Shown: positions 42,724-53,503 of the stretch, in pieces
How positions within the stretch are numbered: the stretch's first letter is position 1
Layout: each line of letters starts with the position of its first letter
Assembly (NCBI GenBank): GCA_963805855.1
Contig: CAWDVW010000007.1
Span: 32,001-96,000, forward strand
Reading direction: 5' to 3'
Source: Candidatus Dadabacteria bacterium
GTDB taxonomy: Bacteria > Desulfobacterota_D > UBA1144 > Nemesobacterales > CSP1-2
DNA length: 64,000 bases
Position numbers and translations under genes: made by a program
The notes under the pieces: model-generated
What the model was told of the DNA's origin: nothing
Databases searched by the model: none
What the model saw: the letters and a program-made list of their open reading frames with translations, nothing else

Positions 42724-43599
42724 TCAAATCAATCCATACTCTTTTATTGCGGCCCTAAGGCGCTTCAAATTCCCGGGTGACATCGGCGAGAGCGGTAGCC
42801 TAAATTCATTGTTGATTTTTCCCATTAGACCCAGTCCTGTCTTAACAGGGATCGGATTGGTTTCAAGGAACATAGCCTCGTTTAGCGGATGTAGCTTATA
42901 ATGATATTCCCTTGATTGATTGAACTTCTCATCGACGAATGTGTTGTAAAGCTCGGAAACATCCCTTGGGGCAATGTTTGCAGTAACGGTTATAAAACCT
43001 TTTGCGCCAATGGCTAGAAGTGGGAAATTAAGGGAATCTTCACCAGAGAGCACGATGAAATCCAATCCACAAAGGTAGAGGATCTTACTTGCCTGTTGGA
43101 TTGAACCCGAGGCCTCCTTCACTCCAACGATGTTTTTATGATTCCTTGCTAGCCTGGCAATGGTATCTGGGTTCATGTTCACCCCAGACCTTCCAGGTAT
43201 ATTGTAGAGGATTAGAGGGATATTTACCTCAGATGCTATTTTCTTAAAGTGTAGAAAAAGCCCCTCCTGAGTTGGTTTATTGTAATATGGAACAACTAAT
43301 AGGGCTGCGTCGGCTCCAACCTTCTCAGAAAATTTTGTAAGCCTGATCGCCTCTTCAGTACTGTTGGATCCGGTACCCGCTATGACGGGTATCCTCTTTT
43401 TTACCGTTTTGACTGTTAGTTCAATAACATGTTCGTGTTCTTCATGAGAAAGGGTAGGGGATTCACCGGTCGTACCGCATGGAACGATGCCGTGTGTCCC
43501 GTTTTCGATCTGGAATTCGATCAGTTCTCTCAGGGCCTTTTCGTCTACAGCTCCATCCTTAAAGGGGGTAACTATCGCAACGATCGAACCATGAATCAC
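42724..43599 (-). CDS. dapA: 4-hydroxy-tetrahydrodipicolinate synthase
   Basis: GTTGESPTL, PYYNKP, YNIPGR, GVKEASG, ETNPIPVK. Confidence 0.96.
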   Translation of the reverse strand: MIHGSIVAIVTPFKDGAVDEKALRELIEFQIENGTHGIVPCGTTGESPTLSHEEHEHVIELTVKTVKKRIPVIAGTGSNSTEEAIRLTKFSEKVGADAALLVVPYYNKPTQEGLFLHFKKIASEVNIPLILYNIPGRSGVNMNPDTIARLARNHKNIVGVKEASGSIQQASKILYLCGLDFIVLSGEDSLNFPLLAIGAKGFITVTANIAPRDVSELYNTFVDEKFNQSREYHYKLHPLNEAMFLETNPIPVKTGLGLMGKINNEFRLPLSPMSPGNLKRLRAAIKEYGLI

Positions 43600-43789
43600 T
43601 TATAATGCCTCCAAATCCAATTGCTCTGTCTTCATTATATTAGAGATGAATTGGAAATCAAGAAATATATCATATGGGCTTGACGAGCAAGTTCCCGTTA
43701 GCTTACTACAAGGTTGCCATTACCGTTGCTTGGCCCCTTTTGGGTAGGTCACGAGTCCCTTCGGCCTTGCTCAGGACAGGTGTGCGGAT

Positions 43790-43934
43790 GGGGGTCAGGC
43801 TTTGTTTATTCGATTATTTCTTATCAAGTTCTTATATCTTGCGCCTCATTTGTTCTTGTAATCCCACGTCTTATTCAATCTCCTCTTAATTTAACTAACT
43901 CCGATATTAATCAAATAAACAAAGCCTGACCCCC
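43790..43934. mobile_element. 145-bp non-autonomous derivative of the GGGTCAGG-ended HUH element
   Basis: GGGGGTCAGGCTTTGTTTATT...AATAAACAAAGCCTGACCCCC; interior colinear with 47771-47888. Confidence 0.75.
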
Positions 43935-43939
43935 ATAAT

Positions 43940-44506
43940 TTACGTTTTCAGCGATGTTCCACATTCGGGACAAAAGTTGCTTTTCCTTGGGATCTTGCTC
44001 CCGCAATTAGGGCAATGCATGGTGTCCTTTTCCGTGGAGAGCTGAGATTTATCCTTATTTCTTTCCAGAGCCTCATTCACCTTCTTGCCAATGTCCTCAC
44101 AGTGTTTTGTGACTTCGCTGACAAATTCAATTCTATCCTCTTTTCCCGGGCTGACAATAGTAATACGGGGATCCAGTTTTTCCATTTCGTAAAGGGTTCT
44201 GCTGACTTCGTCAAGTGCTATATCTCGGAACAGCTTGAATGATGATGAATTTCTTAGTATGAGAATTCTCTGATCTGTGAGTATAAACCAGGAGTTAAAG
44301 TACGTGTTGCTGTCAATCCATTGTGGCGCCTTGTAAATTGCCCTGTAATTTCTTAAAGTGAGCAGTATCTCCTCGCCAGGTGATAGATAACTCGATAGAC
44401 TACCGTTCAATTCCGGGGGCAGTTCGGTGAAGTTTTTCGATTCCAGCTTATTTATTAACCCTTGAATAGATTCAATAAGCGGGGTTATAAATGGGATTTT
44501 AGACAT
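43940..44506 (-). CDS. Hypothetical protein with a bacterial PH-like domain and C-terminal zinc ribbon
   Basis: YLSPGEEI, ILTDQRILI; CPNCG...FCPECG; overlaps the asd stop. Confidence 0.75.
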   Translation of the reverse strand: MSKIPFITPLIESIQGLINKLESKNFTELPPELNGSLSSYLSPGEEILLTLRNYRAIYKAPQWIDSNTYFNSWFILTDQRILILRNSSSFKLFRDIALDEVSRTLYEMEKLDPRITIVSPGKEDRIEFVSEVTKHCEDIGKKVNEALERNKDKSQLSTEKDTMHCPNCGSKIPRKSNFCPECGTSLKT

Positions 44507-45521
44507 ATTTGCTTATCAGGACTTCTGCTATTTGAACTGCATTTAGGGCTGCCCCTTTCCTTAACTGATCTCCGACTACCCATAGGCTGATTCCTGAGGG
44601 AACCGTGTAGTCTTCTCTTATCCGGCCGACCAGGCATTCATCCTTGCCCGCCGCTTCGATTGGCATCGGGTATCTGAGGTTCTGGGGTTCATCCACTACC
44701 CTGACACCCGGGAAATTTTTGAGGGCGTTTTTTGCTTCACCTACGGAGACTTTTCTCTCAGTCTCTATATTCAGTGCAACAGAATGGGCGCGAAAGACAG
44801 GTACCCTCACGGTCGTGGCAGTTAACTGCATTGAGTCGTCCTCCAGGATTTTCCTCGTTTCATTGTGGAGTTTCATCTCCTCTTTCGTATATCCGTTTTC
44901 TAAGAACGTGTCTATGTGTGGCAGGAGATTAAAGGCAATTTGATGGGGAAAGACCCTTGAATCAAATGACTTTCCTTCCATTATAGCCTTTGTTTGGATA
45001 CGTAATTCCTCCATGGCCTGCGCCCCGGCGCCGGATACGGCCTGATAAGAGGCAGCGACCACTCTTTTTATTTTAGCAATATCATGTATGGGTTTCAGAG
45101 CCATAATCGCGACTGCAGTAGTGCAATTTGGGTTGGCAATTATTCCTCTTTTAGTATAATCGGCGATTCTATTAGGATTTATCTCGGGGATTATAAGAGG
45201 AACATCCTCCTCCATACGGAAGGCTGAGCTATTGTCAATCACAACTGCTCCTGCTTGAACGGCAATCTGAGCAAACTCCCGGCTTCTTGACGCACCTGCG
45301 GAAAAAAGCGCAATGTCAATGTCCTTAAAGGAGGTTTTATCCAGTTTGGACACCTGAAATTTGCTGCCAGCGAATTCGATTTCCTTCCCATGGGATCTTT
45401 CGGATGCGAGTGCTTTAAGCTCCCCGATAGGGAAATTTCTTTCCTGGAGGATTGAGATCATTTCCTGCCCGACCGCCCCCGTAGCCCCGACGACTGCAAC
45501 GTTATAACTTTCTTTTTTCAT
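44499..45521 (-). CDS. asd: Aspartate-semialdehyde dehydrogenase
   Basis: VGATGAVG, IDNSSAFRM, ANPNCTT, YQAVSGAG, LRKGAALNAVQIAE. Confidence 0.96.
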   Translation of the reverse strand: MKKESYNVAVVGATGAVGQEMISILQERNFPIGELKALASERSHGKEIEFAGSKFQVSKLDKTSFKDIDIALFSAGASRSREFAQIAVQAGAVVIDNSSAFRMEEDVPLIIPEINPNRIADYTKRGIIANPNCTTAVAIMALKPIHDIAKIKRVVAASYQAVSGAGAQAMEELRIQTKAIMEGKSFDSRVFPHQIAFNLLPHIDTFLENGYTKEEMKLHNETRKILEDDSMQLTATTVRVPVFRAHSVALNIETERKVSVGEAKNALKNFPGVRVVDEPQNLRYPMPIEAAGKDECLVGRIREDYTVPSGISLWVVGDQLRKGAALNAVQIAEVLISKYV

Positions 45522-45622
45522 ACTCACTCCCAATAAATTGCAAAACCGCCTCAGTATTTTAATTAAAAATGTACAGGTAGCCAAGTTTGGAGGCGCTATA
45601 GGGGTCTGGCGATTCAAAACAA

Positions 45623-45945
45623 CCGCTCACACTGAGTTCATCGAAGTGTGGGACATCTTCTATTAAGAGTTACAACATAAACCCGTTAACACTGATCATG
45701 TCGACGTGTGAAAACATATCCTGTAGGAAGTTCTAAATAAACCCGATCATACTAAGCCCTGAGCCTGCCCTGGGTTCATCGATGGGCCCGTCCTGAGTAC
45801 TTCGGCCCTGCTCAGTAAAGGTTTATCGAAGGATCGTGCGCCGCTTCTAAGGATCTAATTTGTAGAGACGCAAAATTTTGCGTCTCTACCACACAGCCCG
45901 ACAGTTGTTGATCTCACTCCCGCGCCATGCGCTTGTCGAAGGGTC
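45623..45945. repeat. Mixed REP cluster: roughly 60-bp tandem units, CTGAG/TCGAAG REPs and a GTAG REP at 45862-45889
   Basis: CACACTGAGTTCATCGAAGTGTG at 45628; ATAAACCCG leader recurs near 45677 and 45737; perfect GTAGAGACGCAAAATTTTGCGTCTCTAC. Confidence 0.7.
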
Positions 45946-46020
45946 AAACTAAAGGTTTTTGTTGATAACTCACCCTACCTATTTTATACTTTAGAACGTT
46001 TCATTTGTTTCCTATGTCTT

Positions 46021-47142
46021 TTGAGAGAGGATAGAGGAATAGAGATTGTAATAGAGTATTTTAGAAAGAAATCCAGCGTATTCATATTGGGCCTGGGATT
46101 TGTTTGTACTGTTACTGGGGATTATCGATTACTTAACAGGTCCCTGGCTTTCTTTCTCAATTTTCTATTTAATTCCCATCGCGATGGTCACCTGGTTCGT
46201 CAACAGACGGGCCGGGATTCTAATATCATTGATCGGCGCTATTGCCTGGCTTATAGCTGATTTGATTTCTGATGTGGACTACTCGAGTCTTGCCATTCCT
46301 TATTGGAATGCTGCCGTGAGATTAGGCTTCTTCCTCATTGTCGTTTTTTTTATATCCGCATTAAGAGAATGTGAAGGGACATTTAGAAAAAAAGGTAGTA
46401 GAGCGAACCGCTACACTTGAGGCAGAGATCACCGAGCGCAAACGAGTGGAGGGGGACCTAAAAGTTTCACGTGAACAGTTACGCGCACTTGCTGCCCGTC
46501 TAGAACACATGCGGGAAGAGGAAGGAAAACGAATTGCCCGCGAGGTTCACGATAACTTGGGGCAGGCTTTGACCGTGTTAAATATGAATCTTTTCGAGCT
46601 GGACAGCGAAATATCTGAATTGGGCAATGAAACTCGACGAGATCTGCTTCTGAATAAGATTCGATCGATGTCTAATCTTATTGACACGACCGTACATCAG
46701 GTACGTCAGATTGCGACAGAATTACGACCGAGAATGTTAGATGACCTGGGTCTTACAGCAGCCATGGAGTGGCAGGCTCGTGATTTTCAAGAACGAACGG
46801 GAATTCAGTGCAAGTTCGTCTCAGACGACATAAATTTGGACCAGGAGTGCTCTACGGGATTATTCCGCATCTTTCAGGAAATTATGACTAATGTAGCTCG
46901 TCATGCCAAAGCCACGAGAGTCAGCATAAGATTGAAGGAGGATACTGATAAGATTATACTGGAAGTGGAAGATAATGGCAGTGGAATTACGGAAGAGGAG
47001 ATTTCTAACCCCCGATCTCTTGGGCTACTCGGAATGAGAAGAGCGCGCCCTGCTTTTCGAAGGAAATATTAACATTAGCGGTGGTCAAGGAAGAGGGACG
47101 ACAGTCACAGTAAATGTTGCTGTTAAGAGGAAAGAACAATGA
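46021..47142 (+). pseudogene. Membrane sensor histidine kinase (HisKA_3/NarX-UhpB type) broken by three frameshifts
   Basis: Fragments join into TM sensor, RIAREVHDNLGQ, QEIMTNVARHA, EDNGSG, GLLGMR-ER; the last frame ends in ATGA overlapping the regulator start. Confidence 0.8.
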
Positions 47143-47768
47143 TCAAAATTCTTATCGCGGATGATCACCCGATTGTGCGGAGTGGCCTGAAACAAATGTT
47201 GATTAAGGAACCCGGTCTGGTGGTAGAGGGCGAGGCAGAGAGTGCTCGCGAGCTTATCGCGCTTGTTCGCAAACAGGCCTGGGATGTAGTGGTTTTAGAC
47301 ATAAACCTGCCCGACAGAGTCGGAATGGATGTCTTAATACAATTGAAGAAGGAATTTCCGAGGCTGCCTGTGCTTATCTTGAGTGTGCAGCCTGAGGAGC
47401 AATATGCGGTGCGAGCCCTCAAATCGGGTGCGGCTGGATGTTTGGACAAACATAGCGCGCCAGTGGAGTTGGTAAAAGCGATAAGAAAAGCCGTTTCGGG
47501 GGGAAAATACATCAGTTCTTCTCTGGCGGAGAGGTTAGCTCTTGATTTGGAAAGTGGTGAGAGGCCGCCACACGAAATTCTGTCGGGTAGAGAGTTTGCG
47601 GTGATGTGTATGATTGCGTCAGGTAAGAGGTTAAATGAGATTGCCGAGAAACTATTTATCAGTCCAAAGACAGTGACCACATTTAGGACGCGGATCTTGG
47701 AGAAAATGGGAATGAAGACGAATGCAGATTTAACTCATTACGTGATAAAAAATAAGCTGGTGGATTAA
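47139..47768 (+). CDS. NarL/UvrY(GacA)-type response regulator
   Basis: ADDHPIVRSG, LDINLP, LuxR HTH LSGRE...IAEKLFISPKTV. Confidence 0.92.
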   Translation: MIKILIADDHPIVRSGLKQMLIKEPGLVVEGEAESARELIALVRKQAWDVVVLDINLPDRVGMDVLIQLKKEFPRLPVLILSVQPEEQYAVRALKSGAAGCLDKHSAPVELVKAIRKAVSGGKYISSSLAERLALDLESGERPPHEILSGREFAVMCMIASGKRLNEIAEKLFISPKTVTTFRTRILEKMGMKTNADLTHYVIKNKLVD

Positions 47769-47771
47769 CCG

Positions 47772-48795
47772 GGGTCAGCCTTTGTTTATTTGCTTATTTG
47801 TTTCTGAAGCTCTTTTGTGATGCTACTGATTTGTTCTCGTAAACCCGGGTTTTTTTTCATCTCTTCCCTAATCCGACTAACTCCGATGCTCAGGGTTGAT
47901 GGATTTCTTCTCACGATTCTCCCATAGCGCTCAAAGTCCCGTCCGCATACTTCGATACCAAAAACCCTATAATACTTCTAACTCTCGACAATTTCCTTTG
48001 CCTACTGAATGAAGTCAACTCTTCTATAGTAACTCTCCATTTTTTGCATACTGAATTTATTATATCTTCCATCCTGTATCTCCTCTCCTCCTTCTTATTG
48101 GTCTTTCTAACACCTCTTCTATAAATTTATCGTTTCCCAGTAATCTTCCCTCTGCTGACCCATGGTGGAACTCCCTTCTGTACTCCTCGTTCAATCCCTC
48201 CAAGACAAATTTCTTATATCGTCTTTGTGCTGTGCTTTCTCCCTTTGAATATTGTGAAAGAACATATTCCACGGTTAGCCAACTTTTACGAGTTATCCCT
48301 AAATAACATTGGTGCCCACTCCATTTATAGTCCTGTGGGTTTCTTGCTACTCCGGCTCTTACGGGATTTAGATGAATGTATCTCACTAATTCATGTAGGT
48401 AATTTTCAGCATCTACCAGAATTGCTTTATATCTTCCTTGAAATAAATGGCCTTTTCTTGACAGCTTTTTATTTATGTAGCTCGCATGGCGAAAAGATAG
48501 GTTCTGTATTAATTTTGAAAGAGGTACCTCAGACACCTGAATCAGCATGTGAACATGATTGCTCATCCAGCAATAGGCATGGATTCTATGTTTAAATCGA
48601 TCTGTTCCATCCTGAACTAGGGTTTCCAAGTGCTCTCGATCTTGATCTGAAAAAAAGATATCTTGACCATCGTTGCCTCGGAGAATTACATGATAAAATC
48701 CACCCGGTATGTGAATTCTGGGTTTCCTGGCCATACAAGATAAAGTATAAGGCCAATTACGATAAACAAATAAGCAAATAAACAAAGCCTGACCC
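47772..48795. mobile_element. HUH/RAYT-type transposase element bounded by 32-bp inverted repeats
   Basis: 47772-47803 matches the reverse complement of 48764-48795 at 31 of 32 positions and encloses only the transposase gene. Confidence 0.8.
47786..48734 (-). pseudogene. Y1/RAYT-type transposase with a C-terminal DnaA-domain-IV-like HTH; two apparent frameshifts
   Basis: MARKPR, YHVILRGN, HUH MSNHVH, GHLFQGRY, RYIHLNPVRAG; shifted frames continue EDIINSVCKKW...RQRKLSRVR...RNPSTLS to a stop at 47786. Confidence 0.8.
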
Positions 48796-48805
48796 GCCTT
48801 TTTTG

Positions 48806-48843
48806 TGTAGGGGGACCCCTACAAAAAATTCAGGTTTTCCTGA
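48806..48843. promoter_or_regulatory. Paired palindromes, putative NarL/GacA-family regulator sites
   Basis: TGTAGG-N6-CCTACA (48806-48823) then TCAGG-N4-CCTGA (48830-48843), upstream of the receiver gene. Confidence 0.5.
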
Positions 48844-48884
48844 TTGTAATCGAAAGTCTTAACCCATACTATTTACAATAGCTA

Positions 48885-49281
48885 ATGGAATTTATGAGAA
48901 TATTTATTGCAGATGATTCATCAGTTGTGCGCGAGAGGTTAACAGCCATGCTTTCTAATCTTGAAGAGATTGAGACGATAGGCCAGGCACAAGACGTTGA
49001 CGAAGCGATCAGCTCCATCGAAGAGCTGAAACCTGATGCTGTGATATTGGATATTCAGATGCCCGGTGGGACTGGGATTGACGTAATGAAAGCGTATCAA
49101 AAAAGAGCAACCGGCTACTGTCGTTATCGTACTGACCAACTATCCCTTTTCTCAATACCGTGACGAATGCATCGCGGAGGGAGCGGATTACTTTTTTGAT
49201 AAGTCCCTTGAATTTGAAAAGGCTATAGAGGTATGCAAGGGATTGGTAAGAAATGGTACGTATGGTTTTAACCAGCAGTAA
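48885..49281 (+). pseudogene. Single-domain response regulator receiver with one frameshift
   Basis: IADDSSVVRE, ILDIQMPGGTG; removing one A near 49088-49090 continues KRIKKEQPATVVIVLTNY...ADYFFDKS to TAA at 49281. Confidence 0.8.
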
Positions 49282-49347
49282 TAGTTTTGTTTATTAAGAT
49301 TTAGGTGGACTTAAAATATAGAATACATAATTAAGGAGAATAGGAAA

Positions 49348-51369
49348 ATGCGTAACACAATGCAGGTGTTAGTAATTGCGCTGGGATTATTTGCTATTAC
49401 GTTTTTTTTGGTTACTTCCCCTGTAACCTCGCAGGCAAACGCTGCTACTGTGACGACTGATAAAGACGACTATGTGCCTGGAGAGACAGTAATTATTACA
49501 GGATCAGGATGGCAGCCTTGGGAAACTGTGGAGCTTTATATACTTGAGGAGCCTGAAATTCATCCCGGCGAGACTTTATACGCAGATGCCGACGGTGCAG
49601 GCGAGATTTCCAACAACGAATACGTTATCCAAGACCATGACCTTGGGCAGACTTTTACATTAACGGCCACGGGGCTGACATCTGGCATGATCGCACAGAC
49701 GACGTTTACGGATGCCGCCAACTGCACCGTCGCGGCCGACTGCGATGCTGCGAAGGAATGCGAAACAGGCCCCTTCTGTGTGGCTGGCAAGTGCCAATAC
49801 GGGAATGCGGCAGCCGGGATAGCTTGCACTGCTGACGCCAAATTATGTACCCTCGACCAGTGCGACGGCGCTGGTAAGTGTGATCACCCAACAGCGAGTA
49901 GTGGCACCTTGTGCAGAGCGTCTGCGGGCACATGCGACGTAGTTGAGACCTGCGATGGGTCGAGCAAAGACTGTCCTGCGGATGCTGTAGCCGGGACTGG
50001 TGTTGTTTGTAATGCTGCTAACGGGGTATGTGACGTGGCAGAGAATTGCGATGGGACGAATAAGACGTGTCCTGCCGATGCTGTAGCCGGGACTGGTGTT
50101 GTTTGTAATGCTGCTAACGGGGTATGTGACGTGGCAGAGAATTGCGATGGGACGAATAAGACGTGTCCTGCCGATGCTGTAGCCGGGACTGGTGTTGTTT
50201 GTAATGCTGCTAACGGGGTATGTGACGTGGCAGAGAATTGCGATGGGACGAATAAGACGTGTCCTGCCGATGCAAAGAGCTCGGCAGAGTGCCGCGCATC
50301 GGAAGGGGCTTGTGATCCGGCCGAGAGTTGTGATGGAGTGGGCAATGACTGTCCTGCAGATGCAAAGAGCTCGGCAGAGTGCCGCGCATCGGAAGGGGCT
50401 TGTGATCCGGCCGAGAGTTGTGATGGAGTGGGCAATGACTGTCCTTCAGATGCAAAGAGCTCGGCAGAGTGCCGCGCATCGGAAGGGGCTTGTGATCCGG
50501 CCGAGAGTTGTGATGGAGTGGGCAATGACTGTCCTGCAGATGAGCTAGACGATTCATTCTGTGACGATAGTGATATATGTACTGACGATATGTGCGAACC
50601 ATCTAATTCGGAGAGTGATTCTGACGGATGTTTGATTACTTCTAACCCTTCAAATGATCCCTCTTGTGAAAATGACCTTATATGTAAAGGGCCGGGGTTC
50701 TACAGTACACATGGTGGAAGTGAAAAATCTGGGAAGAGTGCACGCGCGGCTGTTAATGTAACTCAGATGATTATTGATGCCGCGGGAGGATGTGTCGAGA
50801 TTTGTGGTGAGAAAATCAACGCAACCGACACCGACAACGCCGACTCAGCTCTGGAGGGTTTATGTGTTAGTCCGAAGAGCGATCCCAAAATTAAGGTATA
50901 TCGAATGCTTATTACAACGGCATTGAACTGCATAGTAAGTGGTTTCGGACCTGACTGTATGGATGCTCCTGAAGATATCGCCATGTTGTTCGATGAGTGT
51001 AATATGGCGTGTATAAACGGCGACACGACAATGATTAAAAGCTGTGTTGATGAACTTGATTGCGTCAACAATGGTGGGGCCTACGACAACGGCTTCTGCC
51101 AGACAGGTGAATGCTCTGACAATATGCAGCCCTGTAATGAATCAGACCACTCAAACTGTGGAGTCGGTGCTGTATGCGTACAAACTGATGGTTGCGATGA
51201 TCTGCCGCTCGTGAATGAAGACCTTAGTCTCTACTTTGATCCAGAGCCAGCTGCAAGTAGCCCAAAGGCTTGCAACGCGGCGACCAAGAGCTCATGCACT
51301 GGGGTTGGATCGGATGAAGATGAATGTAACACTGGTACGATGTCTTTGACCGCTGAAACTTGTCCGTAA
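49348..51369 (+). CDS. Secreted cysteine-rich repeat protein with disintegrin-like repeats
   Basis: Signal peptide, TDKDDYVPGETV Ig-like domain, repeated CR...CD..E.CDG....CP.D units. Confidence 0.8.
   Translation: MRNTMQVLVIALGLFAITFFLVTSPVTSQANAATVTTDKDDYVPGETVIITGSGWQPWETVELYILEEPEIHPGETLYADADGAGEISNNEYVIQDHDLGQTFTLTATGLTSGMIAQTTFTDAANCTVAADCDAAKECETGPFCVAGKCQYGNAAAGIACTADAKLCTLDQCDGAGKCDHPTASSGTLCRASAGTCDVVETCDGSSKDCPADAVAGTGVVCNAANGVCDVAENCDGTNKTCPADAVAGTGVVCNAANGVCDVAENCDGTNKTCPADAVAGTGVVCNAANGVCDVAENCDGTNKTCPADAKSSAECRASEGACDPAESCDGVGNDCPADAKSSAECRASEGACDPAESCDGVGNDCPSDAKSSAECRASEGACDPAESCDGVGNDCPADELDDSFCDDSDICTDDMCEPSNSESDSDGCLITSNPSNDPSCENDLICKGPGFYSTHGGSEKSGKSARAAVNVTQMIIDAAGGCVEICGEKINATDTDNADSALEGLCVSPKSDPKIKVYRMLITTALNCIVSGFGPDCMDAPEDIAMLFDECNMACINGDTTMIKSCVDELDCVNNGGAYDNGFCQTGECSDNMQPCNESDHSNCGVGAVCVQTDGCDDLPLVNEDLSLYFDPEPAASSPKACNAATKSSCTGVGSDEDECNTGTMSLTAETCP
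49972..50541 (+). repeat. Intragenic tandem repeats: 3 x 96 bp then 3 x 90 bp
   Basis: Units start at 49972, 50068, 50164 (32 aa) and 50260, 50350, 50440 (30 aa); near-identical DNA. Confidence 0.92.
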
Positions 51370-51381
51370 AACTTAAACAAT

Positions 51382-51413
51382 TAGGGCGCCCTGTCATTTG
51401 ACGGAGCGCCCTA
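51382..51413 (+). terminator. GC-rich hairpin after the Cys-rich gene
   Basis: TAGGGCGC...TGTCA-TT-TGACG...GCGCCCTA; weak U tract. Confidence 0.5.
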
Positions 51414-51562
51414 CTTGAATCGTATGAGTAGTGTAAGGACCGGGGGGACCCATTAGCCAGTCCCTGTCAATAGGGTAAAGAAATTCTTTTGATGTTTTTT
51501 ATTCATATCATCTTCTCTTGCTAGTTTATCCAACACGCGCCCGTTATTTTTGTCTTTGTGGT

Positions 51563-51609
51563 CCGGGGCCAGGCTTTGTTTATTTGCTTATTTATTTCTG
51601 AAGCTCTTT
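51563..51609. repeat. Extra copy of the HUH element left end
   Basis: 44 of 47 nt identical to 47769-47815 in direct orientation. Confidence 0.75.
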
Positions 51610-51950
51610 CGTCTTATTCCTAGTTTATTCTGGTATGAGTCCTTTCCTGGCGACCTGAAGGTCTCCGCTACAATTAAAACACCCCATCCTAGCCCCTCCG
51701 ATGTCACTCAGGACAGGCTTAGTGCGGACGGGTTTAATACATAAGTCGCCAGTCCGGGAATCCCCATTCGTTCACACTTCTATAGTTCGACGGGCTCACC
51801 ACTCGGTGCGAACGGATTAAAAAGGCTTATGAGGTGGGTCAGGCTTCGTTAATCAGTTTATGAAGCTCCTTCATTACATTGGAGATTTGTCCTTTTCCAG
51901 AAGGTCCTTATAATACATATAAAATTTTAGAAATATGAGGAGAATAATTC

Positions 51951-52727
51951 ATGAGAAAGAATCTGATAATTGTACTTCCATTGCTATTTCTATTTATTGC
52001 TATTTGTACTCAAATTGGTTGCCAGAGCCCGGACGTAAGTGGGATACGGGAAGAGTTAAAAGAGCTAATAGAGCTTGAGAAGGCAAATCAAAAAGAGCTC
52101 CAGGAGATTAAGAAACTCTTAGGATCAAGGGGTGCGCCCGCGCCTTCGCAACCGGATAACGTGGTATTGAACATAGATAAGAGTCCTTTCAAAGGTGAAA
52201 AAGAGGCGAAGGTTACTTTAATTGAGTTTTCAGATTTTCAGTGCCCGTTTTGCGGGAGACACGCGCGGGACACTATGCCGCAGCTAGACTCTGAATACAT
52301 CAAGACCGGCAAGGTGAAGTACGTCTTTAAGGACTTCCCTTTGGAGTCTATACATAAAAATGCGTTTAAGGCGGCTGAAGCAGCCGATTGCGCGGGTGAC
52401 CAGGGTAAGTATTGGGAGATGCATGATAAACTCTTTGAAAATCAACGGGCCCTCAGCAATGAGGATTTTCTCAAGTACGCCGGGGAATTAAATTTGGATA
52501 AGGCAAAGTTTGAAAAATGTCTCGATAGCGGGACTTACGCGAGTAAGGTTCGTGAAAATATTTCAGAAGGACAAAAAGCAGGGGTCACCGGAACGCCAGC
52601 ATTTTTTCTGGCAATTAATGAGGGAAATGATTCGAGTGTAAAGACTTCGAAAAGGATAACGGGTGCCCAACCCTATGCTAATTTTAAGGGGGCTATAGAC
52701 GACCTTCTTTCGTCACAGGGTAAATAG
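51951..52727 (+). CDS. DsbA/thioredoxin-like lipoprotein
   Basis: QIGC lipobox-like motif, EFSDFQCPFC, GVTGTPAF, GAQP. Confidence 0.9.
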   Translation: MRKNLIIVLPLLFLFIAICTQIGCQSPDVSGIREELKELIELEKANQKELQEIKKLLGSRGAPAPSQPDNVVLNIDKSPFKGEKEAKVTLIEFSDFQCPFCGRHARDTMPQLDSEYIKTGKVKYVFKDFPLESIHKNAFKAAEAADCAGDQGKYWEMHDKLFENQRALSNEDFLKYAGELNLDKAKFEKCLDSGTYASKVRENISEGQKAGVTGTPAFFLAINEGNDSSVKTSKRITGAQPYANFKGAIDDLLSSQGK

Positions 52728-52745
52728 GAGAATAAAAACTAAAAC

Positions 52746-53040
52746 CTCGTTCACACTGAGTTTATCGAAGTGTGAGCATCAGCCATTCGGCCATCCTCAG
52801 TACGGCCCTTCGACCAGGCAGGCTTTCCCCTTGATAAGGGGAAGGGAAAAGGTTGATTTTTATCGAAAGGAATGGGTAGTGTTTCGCGTATTTGAATTTG
52901 CTTTCGGTTGATAGCGTGTTGGATAGAAGTAAAAACATGGATTCCCAATTACTGATTTTGGGAATGACAGACCGGGGGGGATACGCGCTTACGCTTGTCC
53001 CCGTGTGTTTCTAGCGGGGATTCTGTGGGAATGACAATCG
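52746..53040. repeat. REP cluster between convergent genes
   Basis: CACACTGAGTTTATCGAAGTGTG (52752), CCCTTCGAC, two GGGAATGAC tails, GCTTGTCCCCG...GCGGGGA (inverted relative at about 56302-56330). Confidence 0.65.
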
Positions 53041-53059
53041 GGACAGATTAGCCTATATA

Positions 53060-53503
53060 TTAGCGCTTATATTTTTTTTCAATCTCTTTGACTTTTTCTA
53101 TGTTCGCTTTTTCTTCTTCTTCGGGTGAGGAATTGAACCAGGCTTCCAAAATTTCTTTAGCCACTATCGGGGAGGTCATTCTAAGACTCATGGCAAGCAC
53201 ATTAGCGTCATTCCATTTTCTAGCTCCCTCTGCGGTTTTGGCATCGGCGCAGAGTGCCGCCCTGATACCGGGCACCTTATTTGCCGCCATACTGACCCCT
53301 GTGCCCGTCCAGCAAAAGAGTATTCCCTGATCGCAGTCAGTGTTCGAAACCCTTTCAGCTACCTTCTCAGCCACTTCGGCCCACTGAATGGTCTCACCGG
53401 CAAGTGGACCATAAAGTTCAAGTTCAATGCCCTTCTTTTTCAATTCCTTTATAACGAAGTCTGTTAAATGAGTCTTTTCGTCGCTTCCCACTGCGATTTT
53501 CAT
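53060..53503 (-). CDS. RpiB/LacAB family sugar-phosphate isomerase
   Basis: IAVGSD, CWTGTGVSMAANKVPGIRAA, WNDANVL. Confidence 0.9.
   Translation of the reverse strand: MKIAVGSDEKTHLTDFVIKELKKKGIELELYGPLAGETIQWAEVAEKVAERVSNTDCDQGILFCWTGTGVSMAANKVPGIRAALCADAKTAEGARKWNDANVLAMSLRMTSPIVAKEILEAWFNSSPEEEEKANIEKVKEIEKKYKR

Follow-up and report, generated by a model that had tools for sequence, protein, structure and literature searches.

The window analysed here is a stretch of 64,000 nucleotides from a Candidatus Dadabacteria bacterium (G000:C7:32001-96000, taken from a 3.11-Mb assembly of 9 contigs). Starting at position 47771 it contains a cassette of roughly 1,025 bp in which one transposase-like gene lies between long terminal inverted repeats (TIRs). 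We consider it very probable that this locus is a TIRtron encoding one TIRYT protein, that by its C-terminal domain the protein belongs to subclass 2.1.2, and that the gene is a resident one resembling the REP-associated tyrosine transposases (RAYTs; REP stands for repetitive extragenic palindromic sequence).

The class was named by Di Nocera, De Gregorio and Rocco (2013, BMC Genomics 14:522; PMC3733652), whose main text describes RAYT-like genes flanked by long TIRs instead of REPs and terms the genes TIRYT and the units TIRtrons. The same text reports the terminal motif GGGGWSAS in many TIRtrons, some TIRs that overlap the 3' end of the gene, and some that make up families of moderate abundance, with copies that stand singly, in pairs or in groups. 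According to the main text of Quentin, Siguier, Chandler and Fichant (2018, BMC Genomics 19:475; PMC6006769), 20 of 26 TIRYT proteins fall in TnpA_REP subclass 2.1, where group 2.1.2 carries a C-terminal Bac_DnaA_C, HTH_23 or HTH_28 domain. In the literature searched, the term TIRYT was found only in these two papers. A preliminary description of this DNA, made from the sequence alone, had taken the locus for a distinct and new mobile unit. Because TIR-flanked RAYT-like genes with GGGGWSAS were already published in 2013 and 2018, that claim does not hold; the class is known and the window copy is, as a genome feature, ordinary.

Terminal inverted repeats and limits of the unit

A single inverted-repeat pair was found in 47400-49200, with arms of 32 nt at 47772-47803 and 48764-48795 that are complementary at 31/32 positions (97 %) and lie 960 nt apart. 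A fourth G at 47771 precedes the left arm, so that the left terminus reads GGGGTCAG and fits the published GGGGWSAS. At the right terminus CTGACCC is followed by a G at 48796, giving CGGGTCAG, which agrees with GGGGWSAS at seven of eight positions. In the 3.11-Mb genome the 32-mer is found 3 times when up to 3 mismatches are allowed, compared to 0 for a reversed control pattern, and a chance origin of the inverted repeat is thereby excluded.

Relative to the gene, which lies on the minus strand, the left end is the 3' TIR (47771..47804, plus strand). It begins with the terminal GGGGTCAGCC (47771-47780), after which come three tandem 8-nt units, TTTGTTTA (47781-47788), TTTGCTTA (47789-47796) and TTTGTTTC (47797-47804). 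The right end is the 5' TIR (48764..48795, minus strand), the reverse complement of the left arm at 31/32 positions, with 61 nt between its outer end and the downstream ATG at 48734. The stop codon of the gene (47786-47788) falls inside the left arm, within the first 8-nt unit. The inverted repeat, its degree of identity and the stop codon lying inside it had all been described beforehand and are confirmed here, and the boundaries given at that time were correct to within one base, namely the fourth G.

Both TIR arms are non-palindromic. Folded singly as single-stranded DNA (ssDNA), the arms showed no secondary structure beyond chance (z 0.26, 0.30, 1.09 and -0.12), and no Rfam family was found in 43000-53500. 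A copy in another genus (genome G012) is 74 % identical to the window copy at the nucleotide level and has unrelated neighbour genes. Its homology with the window is limited to GGGGTCAG..CTGACCCC, from 47771 onwards, the alignment ending on the left exactly at the left terminus and on the right at CTGACCC(C). The loose ends of metagenome contigs likewise cluster at the edges of the right TIR, at 48793-48795 (outer) and 48761-48764 (inner). The TIRs bound the unit with constant, not variable, boundaries, and the cassette is the unit of homology between genera. The earlier view of the repeats as real, non-palindromic TIRs is upheld.

One low-depth contig joins 47798 to 48761 and skips 962 nt (side 30). 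We rejected this junction as an excision product and read it as a TIR pair located elsewhere.

The encoded protein

The single minus-strand gene between the arms is split over three reading frames in the window. Its first piece (48060..48734) encodes a RAYT-like Y1 HUH nuclease domain followed by a linker (Pfam PF01797 Y1_Tnp, E 4.9e-17), with the HUH motif in MSNHVH and the catalytic tyrosine in RYIHLNP. Over residues 1-214 this piece is 94 % identical to the intact orthologue of a sister species in the same genus (genome G001). The second piece, in the second frame (47911..48072, minus strand), encodes the first part of a helix-turn-helix (HTH) region like DnaA domain IV (Pfam PF08299 Bac_DnaA_C, E 6.4e-9), while the third, in the third frame (47786..47914, minus strand), supplies the rest of the HTH and a C-terminal helix and aligns with residues 271-316 of the G001 orthologue. 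The columns of the HUH motif and the tyrosine are invariant or nearly so across 54 family sequences, and the family profile matches DnaA chains at E 2.3e-12. Against NCBIfam NF047646 REP_Tyr_transpos the gene scores 79.4 bits for a cut-off of 80.

The structure prediction proposed in the preliminary description was run on the intact G001 orthologue. The AlphaFold2 model (pLDDT 95.4, pTM 0.83) has as its best PDB match the E. coli REP-associated transposase 4er8_A (E 2.1e-7, target TM 0.76). In its N-terminal half the model is closest to 4er8_A, the REP-bound E. coli RAYT, and next to the TnpA proteins of IS608 and ISDra2, and the C-terminal 95 residues superpose on DNA-bound DnaA domain IV (3pvp_A and 1j1v_A; target TM 0.87 and 0.86; rmsd, the root mean square deviation, 1.7 and 1.5 Å). 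By this model and the family profile, the C-terminal tail is a true DnaA domain IV fold. Pfam, profile and fold matches together bear out the original identification of a Y1/RAYT gene with a DnaA domain IV-like HTH.

All the defining features tested for a TIRYT gene in its TIRtron were found at the locus: a Y1 HUH protein with its tyrosine, long TIRs instead of REP hairpins, the GGGGWSAS terminus and copies of the TIR elsewhere. The C-terminal extension of TnpA_REP group 2.1.2 is represented by the PF08299 match and the match of the family profile to DnaA chains.

Conservation of the architecture across phyla

TIRYTs are widespread, with at least 598 candidate stretches confirmed as relatives in one-genome-per-species contigs. 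From 80 loci belonging to many phyla we dropped 21 in which the match started outside query residues 1-8 or ended short of residue 280 and another 8 with short flanks, leaving 51. A flanking inverted repeat above all ten shuffles was found at 43 of the 51 loci. Both arms carry G[GT]GTC[AT] at 36/51 loci and the strict GGGGWSAS at 22/51.

At the 36 loci with the motif, the median distance from the outer end of the 5' TIR to the start codon is 53 nt, and the 3' TIR extends beyond the stop by a median of 12 nt. The stop itself is in or touches the TIR in 34 cases; the median span is 1,013 bp. The flank immediately outside the TIRs is A-rich, with a T before GGGG. The TIR architecture is conserved across phyla.

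The preliminary description had proposed looking for a target duplication and comparing filled with empty sites. At the four offsets tested, 0/36 loci were flanked by direct repeats of at least 3 bp, and the comparison of filled and empty sites gave no clean empty site.

Tandem units in the inner part of the repeats

Each repeat combines a family-wide terminus, (T)GGGGTCAGGC, with an element-specific inner part made of two or three tandem 8-nt units. When the inner 26 nt of the TIRs at the 36 loci are matched against themselves, both ends give a maximum at offset 8 (0.364 and 0.394 compared to a shuffle mean of 0.275, sd 0.015), with z-scores of 5.8 and 7.7 that overstate independence, since these loci are related and were chosen by their terminus motif. 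Offset 7 comes next (z 3.5 and 3.4), and all other offsets are at or below chance. The position profile of the TIR at these loci reads GGGTCAGGC-yTgCA...TTG...TT, with YTG at +9 to +11 and TTG at +17 to +19. A second element of G000 has 8-nt units of its own, ATGAATAA and ATGAATTA. The units are candidate sites for the DNA-binding tail of the protein.

We addressed this question by partial Mantel tests on 32 loci. The inner TIR correlates with the C-terminal domain when the N-terminal domain is given (r 0.24, p 0.0005), while the converse test, with the N-terminal domain given the C-terminal domain, yields r 0.08 (p 0.065). This result is only a hint, because a faster-evolving C-terminal domain could by itself produce it by tracking fast-evolving TIRs better. 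That repeated motifs in the ends are recognised by the HTH, as put forward in the first description of the locus, is a reasonable idea and receives indirect support from the family-wide presence of tandem 8-nt units and from the Mantel correlation.

The words 'direct repeat', 'iteron' and 'target site duplication' are absent from the main text of PMC3733652 and PMC6006769, while Figure 9 or Additional file 5 of PMC3733652 may display the units. By word search, the main text of neither TIRYT paper mentions three aspects: tandem 8-nt units in the inner TIR, which are possibly new, a lack of target duplications, and derivatives in which the 3' end of the gene is retained.

Short derivatives and paralogues

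Short derivatives of the element are dispersed in the window and beyond. In a miniature of about 146 bp (43790..43935, plus strand) both TIRs are preserved, together with some 115 nt from the 3' end of the gene; as ssDNA it folds into a hairpin of 28 pairs by way of the two TIRs (-24.75 kcal/mol, z -7.65). A solo 3' end (51565..51635, plus strand) holds a TIR with 2 mismatches and the first roughly 40 nt of the gene end, and a second, more diverged remnant starts at 51836. Elsewhere in G000 there are a degenerate miniature on another contig and several solo ends. The window-type TIR occurs at about 10 further sites in this genome, two inverted pairs among them, and remnants stand at differing places in three genomes of the genus.

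The 146-bp miniature is also present at the same site in G001 (L033 8874-9021), where its inner part has the opposite orientation and the left-hand sequence is different. Going by sequence, the difference suggests either an inversion between the TIRs or a re-insertion.

G000 has three other full-length paralogues. Two of them (L005 and L007), which are 48 % and 33 % identical to the G001 orthologue, have TIRs of their own that share the terminus GGGGTCA and differ in their inner parts; for paralogue L006 the scan found no TIR. Each type is represented by a single full-length copy per genome across the 41 genomes searched, which include G000. The loose terminus pattern GGGTCA[GA][GAC][CT] is not enriched genome-wide (212 occurrences compared to 191 for its reversed counterpart); it is the full TIR families alone that are repeats.

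The second TIRtron (C5:690329-691352) has an intact 325-aa frame and the TIR GGGGTCAGGCATGAATAAATGAATTATT, of which there are about 12 copies in the genome, spread over the element itself, a 262-bp miniature at C5:697422-697683 and about 8 further sites. Tens of matches to this second TIR type were found in G001 and G002, and the flanks next to the ends differ by short indels between G000 and G001. The third TIRtron (C6:168616-169630) has an intact 319-aa gene and the TIR AGGGGTCAAATCTTTTGTTTA, with solo copies at C4:78039, C6:108143 and C7:891. The fourth paralogue (C2:518659) encodes 283 aa with a shorter HTH tail and showed no TIR in the scan. A Y1 homologue that is 32-37 % identical lies on a 4,096-bp contig of the same genome (C8) with a perfect 23-nt palindrome, TTAAAGGGGACGCAACCCTTTAA, on both sides (L008 1410-1432 and 2142-2164); this arrangement is REP- or IS200-like, unlike that of the TIRtrons.

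A resident gene or a mobile element

The gene has the character of a resident, present once and accompanied by dispersed short derivatives, which is the pattern of RAYTs and not that of a multiplying insertion sequence (IS). This follows from there being one full copy per type, the same locus in the sister species, no clean empty site and no target duplication. In G001 the order of histidine kinase, NarL-type regulator, element and second regulator is the same, with 89 % identity over 3.1 kb and 92.7 % over the element itself, and the gene is an intact frame of 316-323 aa. At the sites where empty counterparts were sought, the sister genomes show a copy that is kept, unrelated sequence, or a contig break in a repeat-rich spacer. 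A clean empty site was also not found for the second-type miniature and two solo ends.

One explanation for the architecture, and the one first proposed, is a previously unrecognised autonomous IS-like element in which an HUH transposase operates between TIRs of DDE style. Long non-palindromic TIRs do bound the unit, miniatures with both TIRs do exist, and in G012 the same element type stands in a different gene context in another genus. We nevertheless regard such an element as highly improbable. Its novelty is contradicted by the TIRYT/TIRtron papers of 2013 and 2018, none of the 41 genomes, G000 among them, holds multiple near-identical full-length copies, and the sister species carries the element at the same locus. 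Together with the target duplications found in 0/36 loci, this makes the likeness to a DDE insertion sequence a superficial one. The preliminary description had set its proposal against a case in which relatives keep the gene at the same locus without empty sites and the repeats have variable boundaries; the first half of that case is what we observed, while the second is not, the repeat boundaries being constant.

The assignment of the locus to the TIRtrons has to be weighed against several observations that count against it. No inverted repeat above the shuffles was found at 8/51 loci, the terminus motif was not in both arms at 15/51, and the right terminus of the window copy itself departs from GGGGWSAS by one base. 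When pairs of filled and empty sites were sought for the full element, no clean empty site was found: G001 is occupied at the same locus, the G002 assembly is without the locus, and G004, G013 and G008 have the kinase and the regulator and then unrelated downstream DNA. One site of the second-type miniature holds unrelated sequence in G002. Finally, the gene lies in three frames, so the window copy may be dead.

Frameshifts in the window copy

The state of the window copy depends on two single bases. Frameshift 1 (48104..48105) corresponds to a G that G001, G012 and a G001-like metagenome contig (run X4) have and the window does not, and frameshift 2 (47926..47927) to a T that is absent in the window and present in G001 and G012. 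Neither deletion lies in a long homopolymer. No public run shared more than 0.16 of the words sampled, RNA runs were absent from those listed, and four runs compared with the region gave only short contigs. Position 48104 is covered only by the contig of the G001-like strain, and 47926/47927 is spanned by no near-identical contig.

The histidine kinase (at 46371 and about 47040) and the second response regulator (at 49085-49090, in an A run) are also frameshifted compared to the intact G001 genes. At two positions, 46371 in the kinase and 49088 in the second regulator, the window has an extra base that near-identical short-read contigs lack. The frameshifts at these two positions are assembly indels and not signs of pseudogenes, and this stretch of the assembly therefore carries indel errors. 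The two frameshifts of the transposase gene are either assembly indels or recent decay.

Should both 1-nt deletions be real, the window copy would be a dead pseudogene making no protein, and its TIRs and derivatives would be fossils or would be served in trans by the intact paralogues. This fits a gene in three frames with two single-base deletions compared to both G001 and G012, neither in a long homopolymer. The frameshifts moreover cluster at this locus while a further 12 syntenic genes lying within some 20 kb are intact compared to G001, and the many 3'-end remnants indicate that decay is common in the family. On the other hand, near-identical short-read contigs contradict the two frameshifts of neighbouring genes that were open to checking, and apart from the two deletions the frames stay open, with 94 % identity to the intact orthologue. 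We regard a dead copy as possible, if somewhat doubtful.

Several TIRYT 3' remnants in G001, in G002 and in one metagenome contig run directly after 47927 into sequence related to GTTCACACTGAGTTTATCGAAGTGTGAGC-like palindromes. A link between a recurrent break of 3' remnants near 47927 and frameshift 2 was dropped, because the alignment is ambiguous there and the remnants continue into another repeat family.

A possible mode of end recognition

The predicted layout of the protein is an N-terminal RAYT-like Y1 HUH nuclease for ssDNA, a folded helical linker and a complete DnaA domain IV HTH. We propose that on duplex DNA the HTH would bind the tandem 8-nt units, in a way comparable to the binding of iterons by HUH Rep proteins. 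Such binding would set the HUH/Tyr centre at the conserved terminus, where the centre would nick one strand once the DNA is locally single-stranded. The two TIRs of the short derivatives could pair as a hairpin in the manner of REPINs (REP doublets forming hairpins). The TIRYT gene would then act mainly on the dispersed TIR-bearing derivatives and relocate only rarely, while the element-specific units would keep coexisting TIRtrons apart.

We hypothesize, tentatively and with more reserve than conviction, that TIRYTs form a separate mechanistic branch of the Y1 proteins, in which the ends are found on duplex DNA, the HTH reads iteron-like 8-nt units, the HUH centre nicks (T)GGGGTCAGGC, and HTH and units co-evolve. 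If the HTH reads the units on duplex DNA, end recognition would not depend on a hairpin, unlike that of IS200/IS605 elements and REP-bound RAYTs. Co-evolution of HTH and 8-nt units would in turn allow several TIRtrons in one genome without cross-talk. Two points from the literature weigh against the proposed mechanism: the terminus is unlike a DnaA box and the main text of PMC6006769 leaves open whether the HTH binds the ends, and the literature searched gave no binding, nicking or transposition data for any TIRYT member.

Alternatively the repeats may be operator and terminator sites through which the HTH regulates its own gene, the dispersed copies being binding sites of a domesticated protein with a host function. 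The 5' TIR, a median of 53 nt upstream of the start, would be suitably placed, and its inner part contains TTGACA-like hexamers in many relatives. Within the genus the gene, present in a single copy, keeps its position, and the text of Bertels et al. (2017; PMC5581495) argues that RAYTs are domesticated. We consider regulation of this kind unlikely. The HUH motif and the tyrosine are invariant or nearly so in the 54 sequences, and the same sequence recurs inverted at the 3' end, over the stop codon, in 34/36 loci. The cassette is the unit of homology between genera, two-ended miniatures have multiplied, and a promoter scan called no minus-strand sigma-70-like site for the gene in the window copy.

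TIRYTs are of interest as the one branch of the IS200/RAYT superfamily that fuses a single-strand nuclease to a duplex-binding domain borrowed from a replication initiator, and that is also bounded by classical-looking inverted repeats. The window locus, its two intact sister elements and the intact G001 orthologue make up a compact set of three proteins and three TIR types, with a shared terminus and differing 8-nt units, that could test whether the HTH sets the specificity for the ends. If true, duplex-guided and iteron-like end recognition would raise the significance of an otherwise modest finding, and the repeat ends provide a testable idea of how the ends are found.

Neighbouring sequence

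To the left of the cassette a NarL/LuxR-type response regulator ends at 47768, and to the right the palindrome GTAGGGGGACCCCTAC (48807-48822) lies upstream of the next regulator gene; both neighbours are as first described. The palindrome belongs to a GTAG-tagged family (GTAGGGG...CCCCTAC) with 5 copies in the genome compared to 0 for three control patterns. Besides 48807-48822 in the window, its sites in G000 are C2:452992, C2:618567, C5:490164 and C5:1029657. A distance of 8 nt separates the window palindrome from the right TIR, outside which it stands, and in the G012 copy a similar palindrome is found about 20 nt beyond the 3' TIR (L024, about 1450-1480).

The stretch from the second regulator to an rpiB-like gene (window 49300-53060) differs among three genomes of the genus. 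In the window it contains a 673-aa Cys-rich protein with tandem repeats of about 32 aa, two TIRYT 3' remnants and a DsbA-like gene, while its counterpart in G001 contains a Gly-rich repeat protein and two other remnants. Short repeat families, for example the GTTCACACTGAGTTTATCGAAGTGTGAGC-like palindromes, occur in the same spacers (window 51770-51815 and 52745-52785; L018 1281-1412).

Comparison with known systems

The insertion sequences of the DDE type differ from the window element in gene and flanks: the only gene of the window element encodes a Y1 HUH protein, and a direct repeat of 3 bp or more flanks 0/36 loci. The Rep initiators of the HUH class (geminivirus, plasmid and AAV Rep, the last from adeno-associated virus) bind iterons beside their nick site. 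The likeness to them is a functional analogy only, in that a duplex-binding module acting on short tandem repeats would place the HUH/Tyr centre at a nearby nick sequence. They belong to another lineage of the superfamily, TIRtrons are without a replication origin, and the analogy rests on inference.

With the TnpA proteins of IS200/IS605 elements (IS608 and ISDra2) the window protein shares the Y1 HUH fold. IS608 inserts without target duplication, and the window family is likewise without one. IS200/IS605 elements have non-equivalent subterminal hairpins, whereas the window locus has equivalent inverted repeats without hairpins at its ends. They are also multi-copy and TnpA_IS200 has no HTH, while the window element is single-copy and without tnpB; the match to NF033573 reaches 23.6 bits for a cut-off of 55.

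The classical RAYT or TnpA_REP systems, with their REPs, bacterial interspersed mosaic elements (BIMEs) and REPINs (E. coli YafM, PDB 4ER8), have in common with the window locus the catalytic fold, a single-copy gene with its own inverted flanking repeat, dispersed non-autonomous copies and a repeat pair able to form a hairpin. The window repeats differ in being non-palindromic and without the GTAG tag, the window protein has an extra DnaA-type HTH, its match to NF047646 is just below the cut-off (79.4 compared to 80), and copies number about ten for each TIR family in this genome, with tens of matches in the two sister genomes. A REPtron is flanked by highly abundant GTAG-tagged REPs; what stands by the right end here is the GTAGGGG..CCCCTAC hairpin, with only 5 copies in the genome.

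The TIRYT genes and TIRtrons show no defining difference from the window element. They share with it a RAYT-like Y1 HUH protein with a Bac_DnaA_C-type domain, a 3' TIR over the end of the gene, TIRs unrelated to REPs, and the presence of several TIRYT genes with differing TIRs in one genome.

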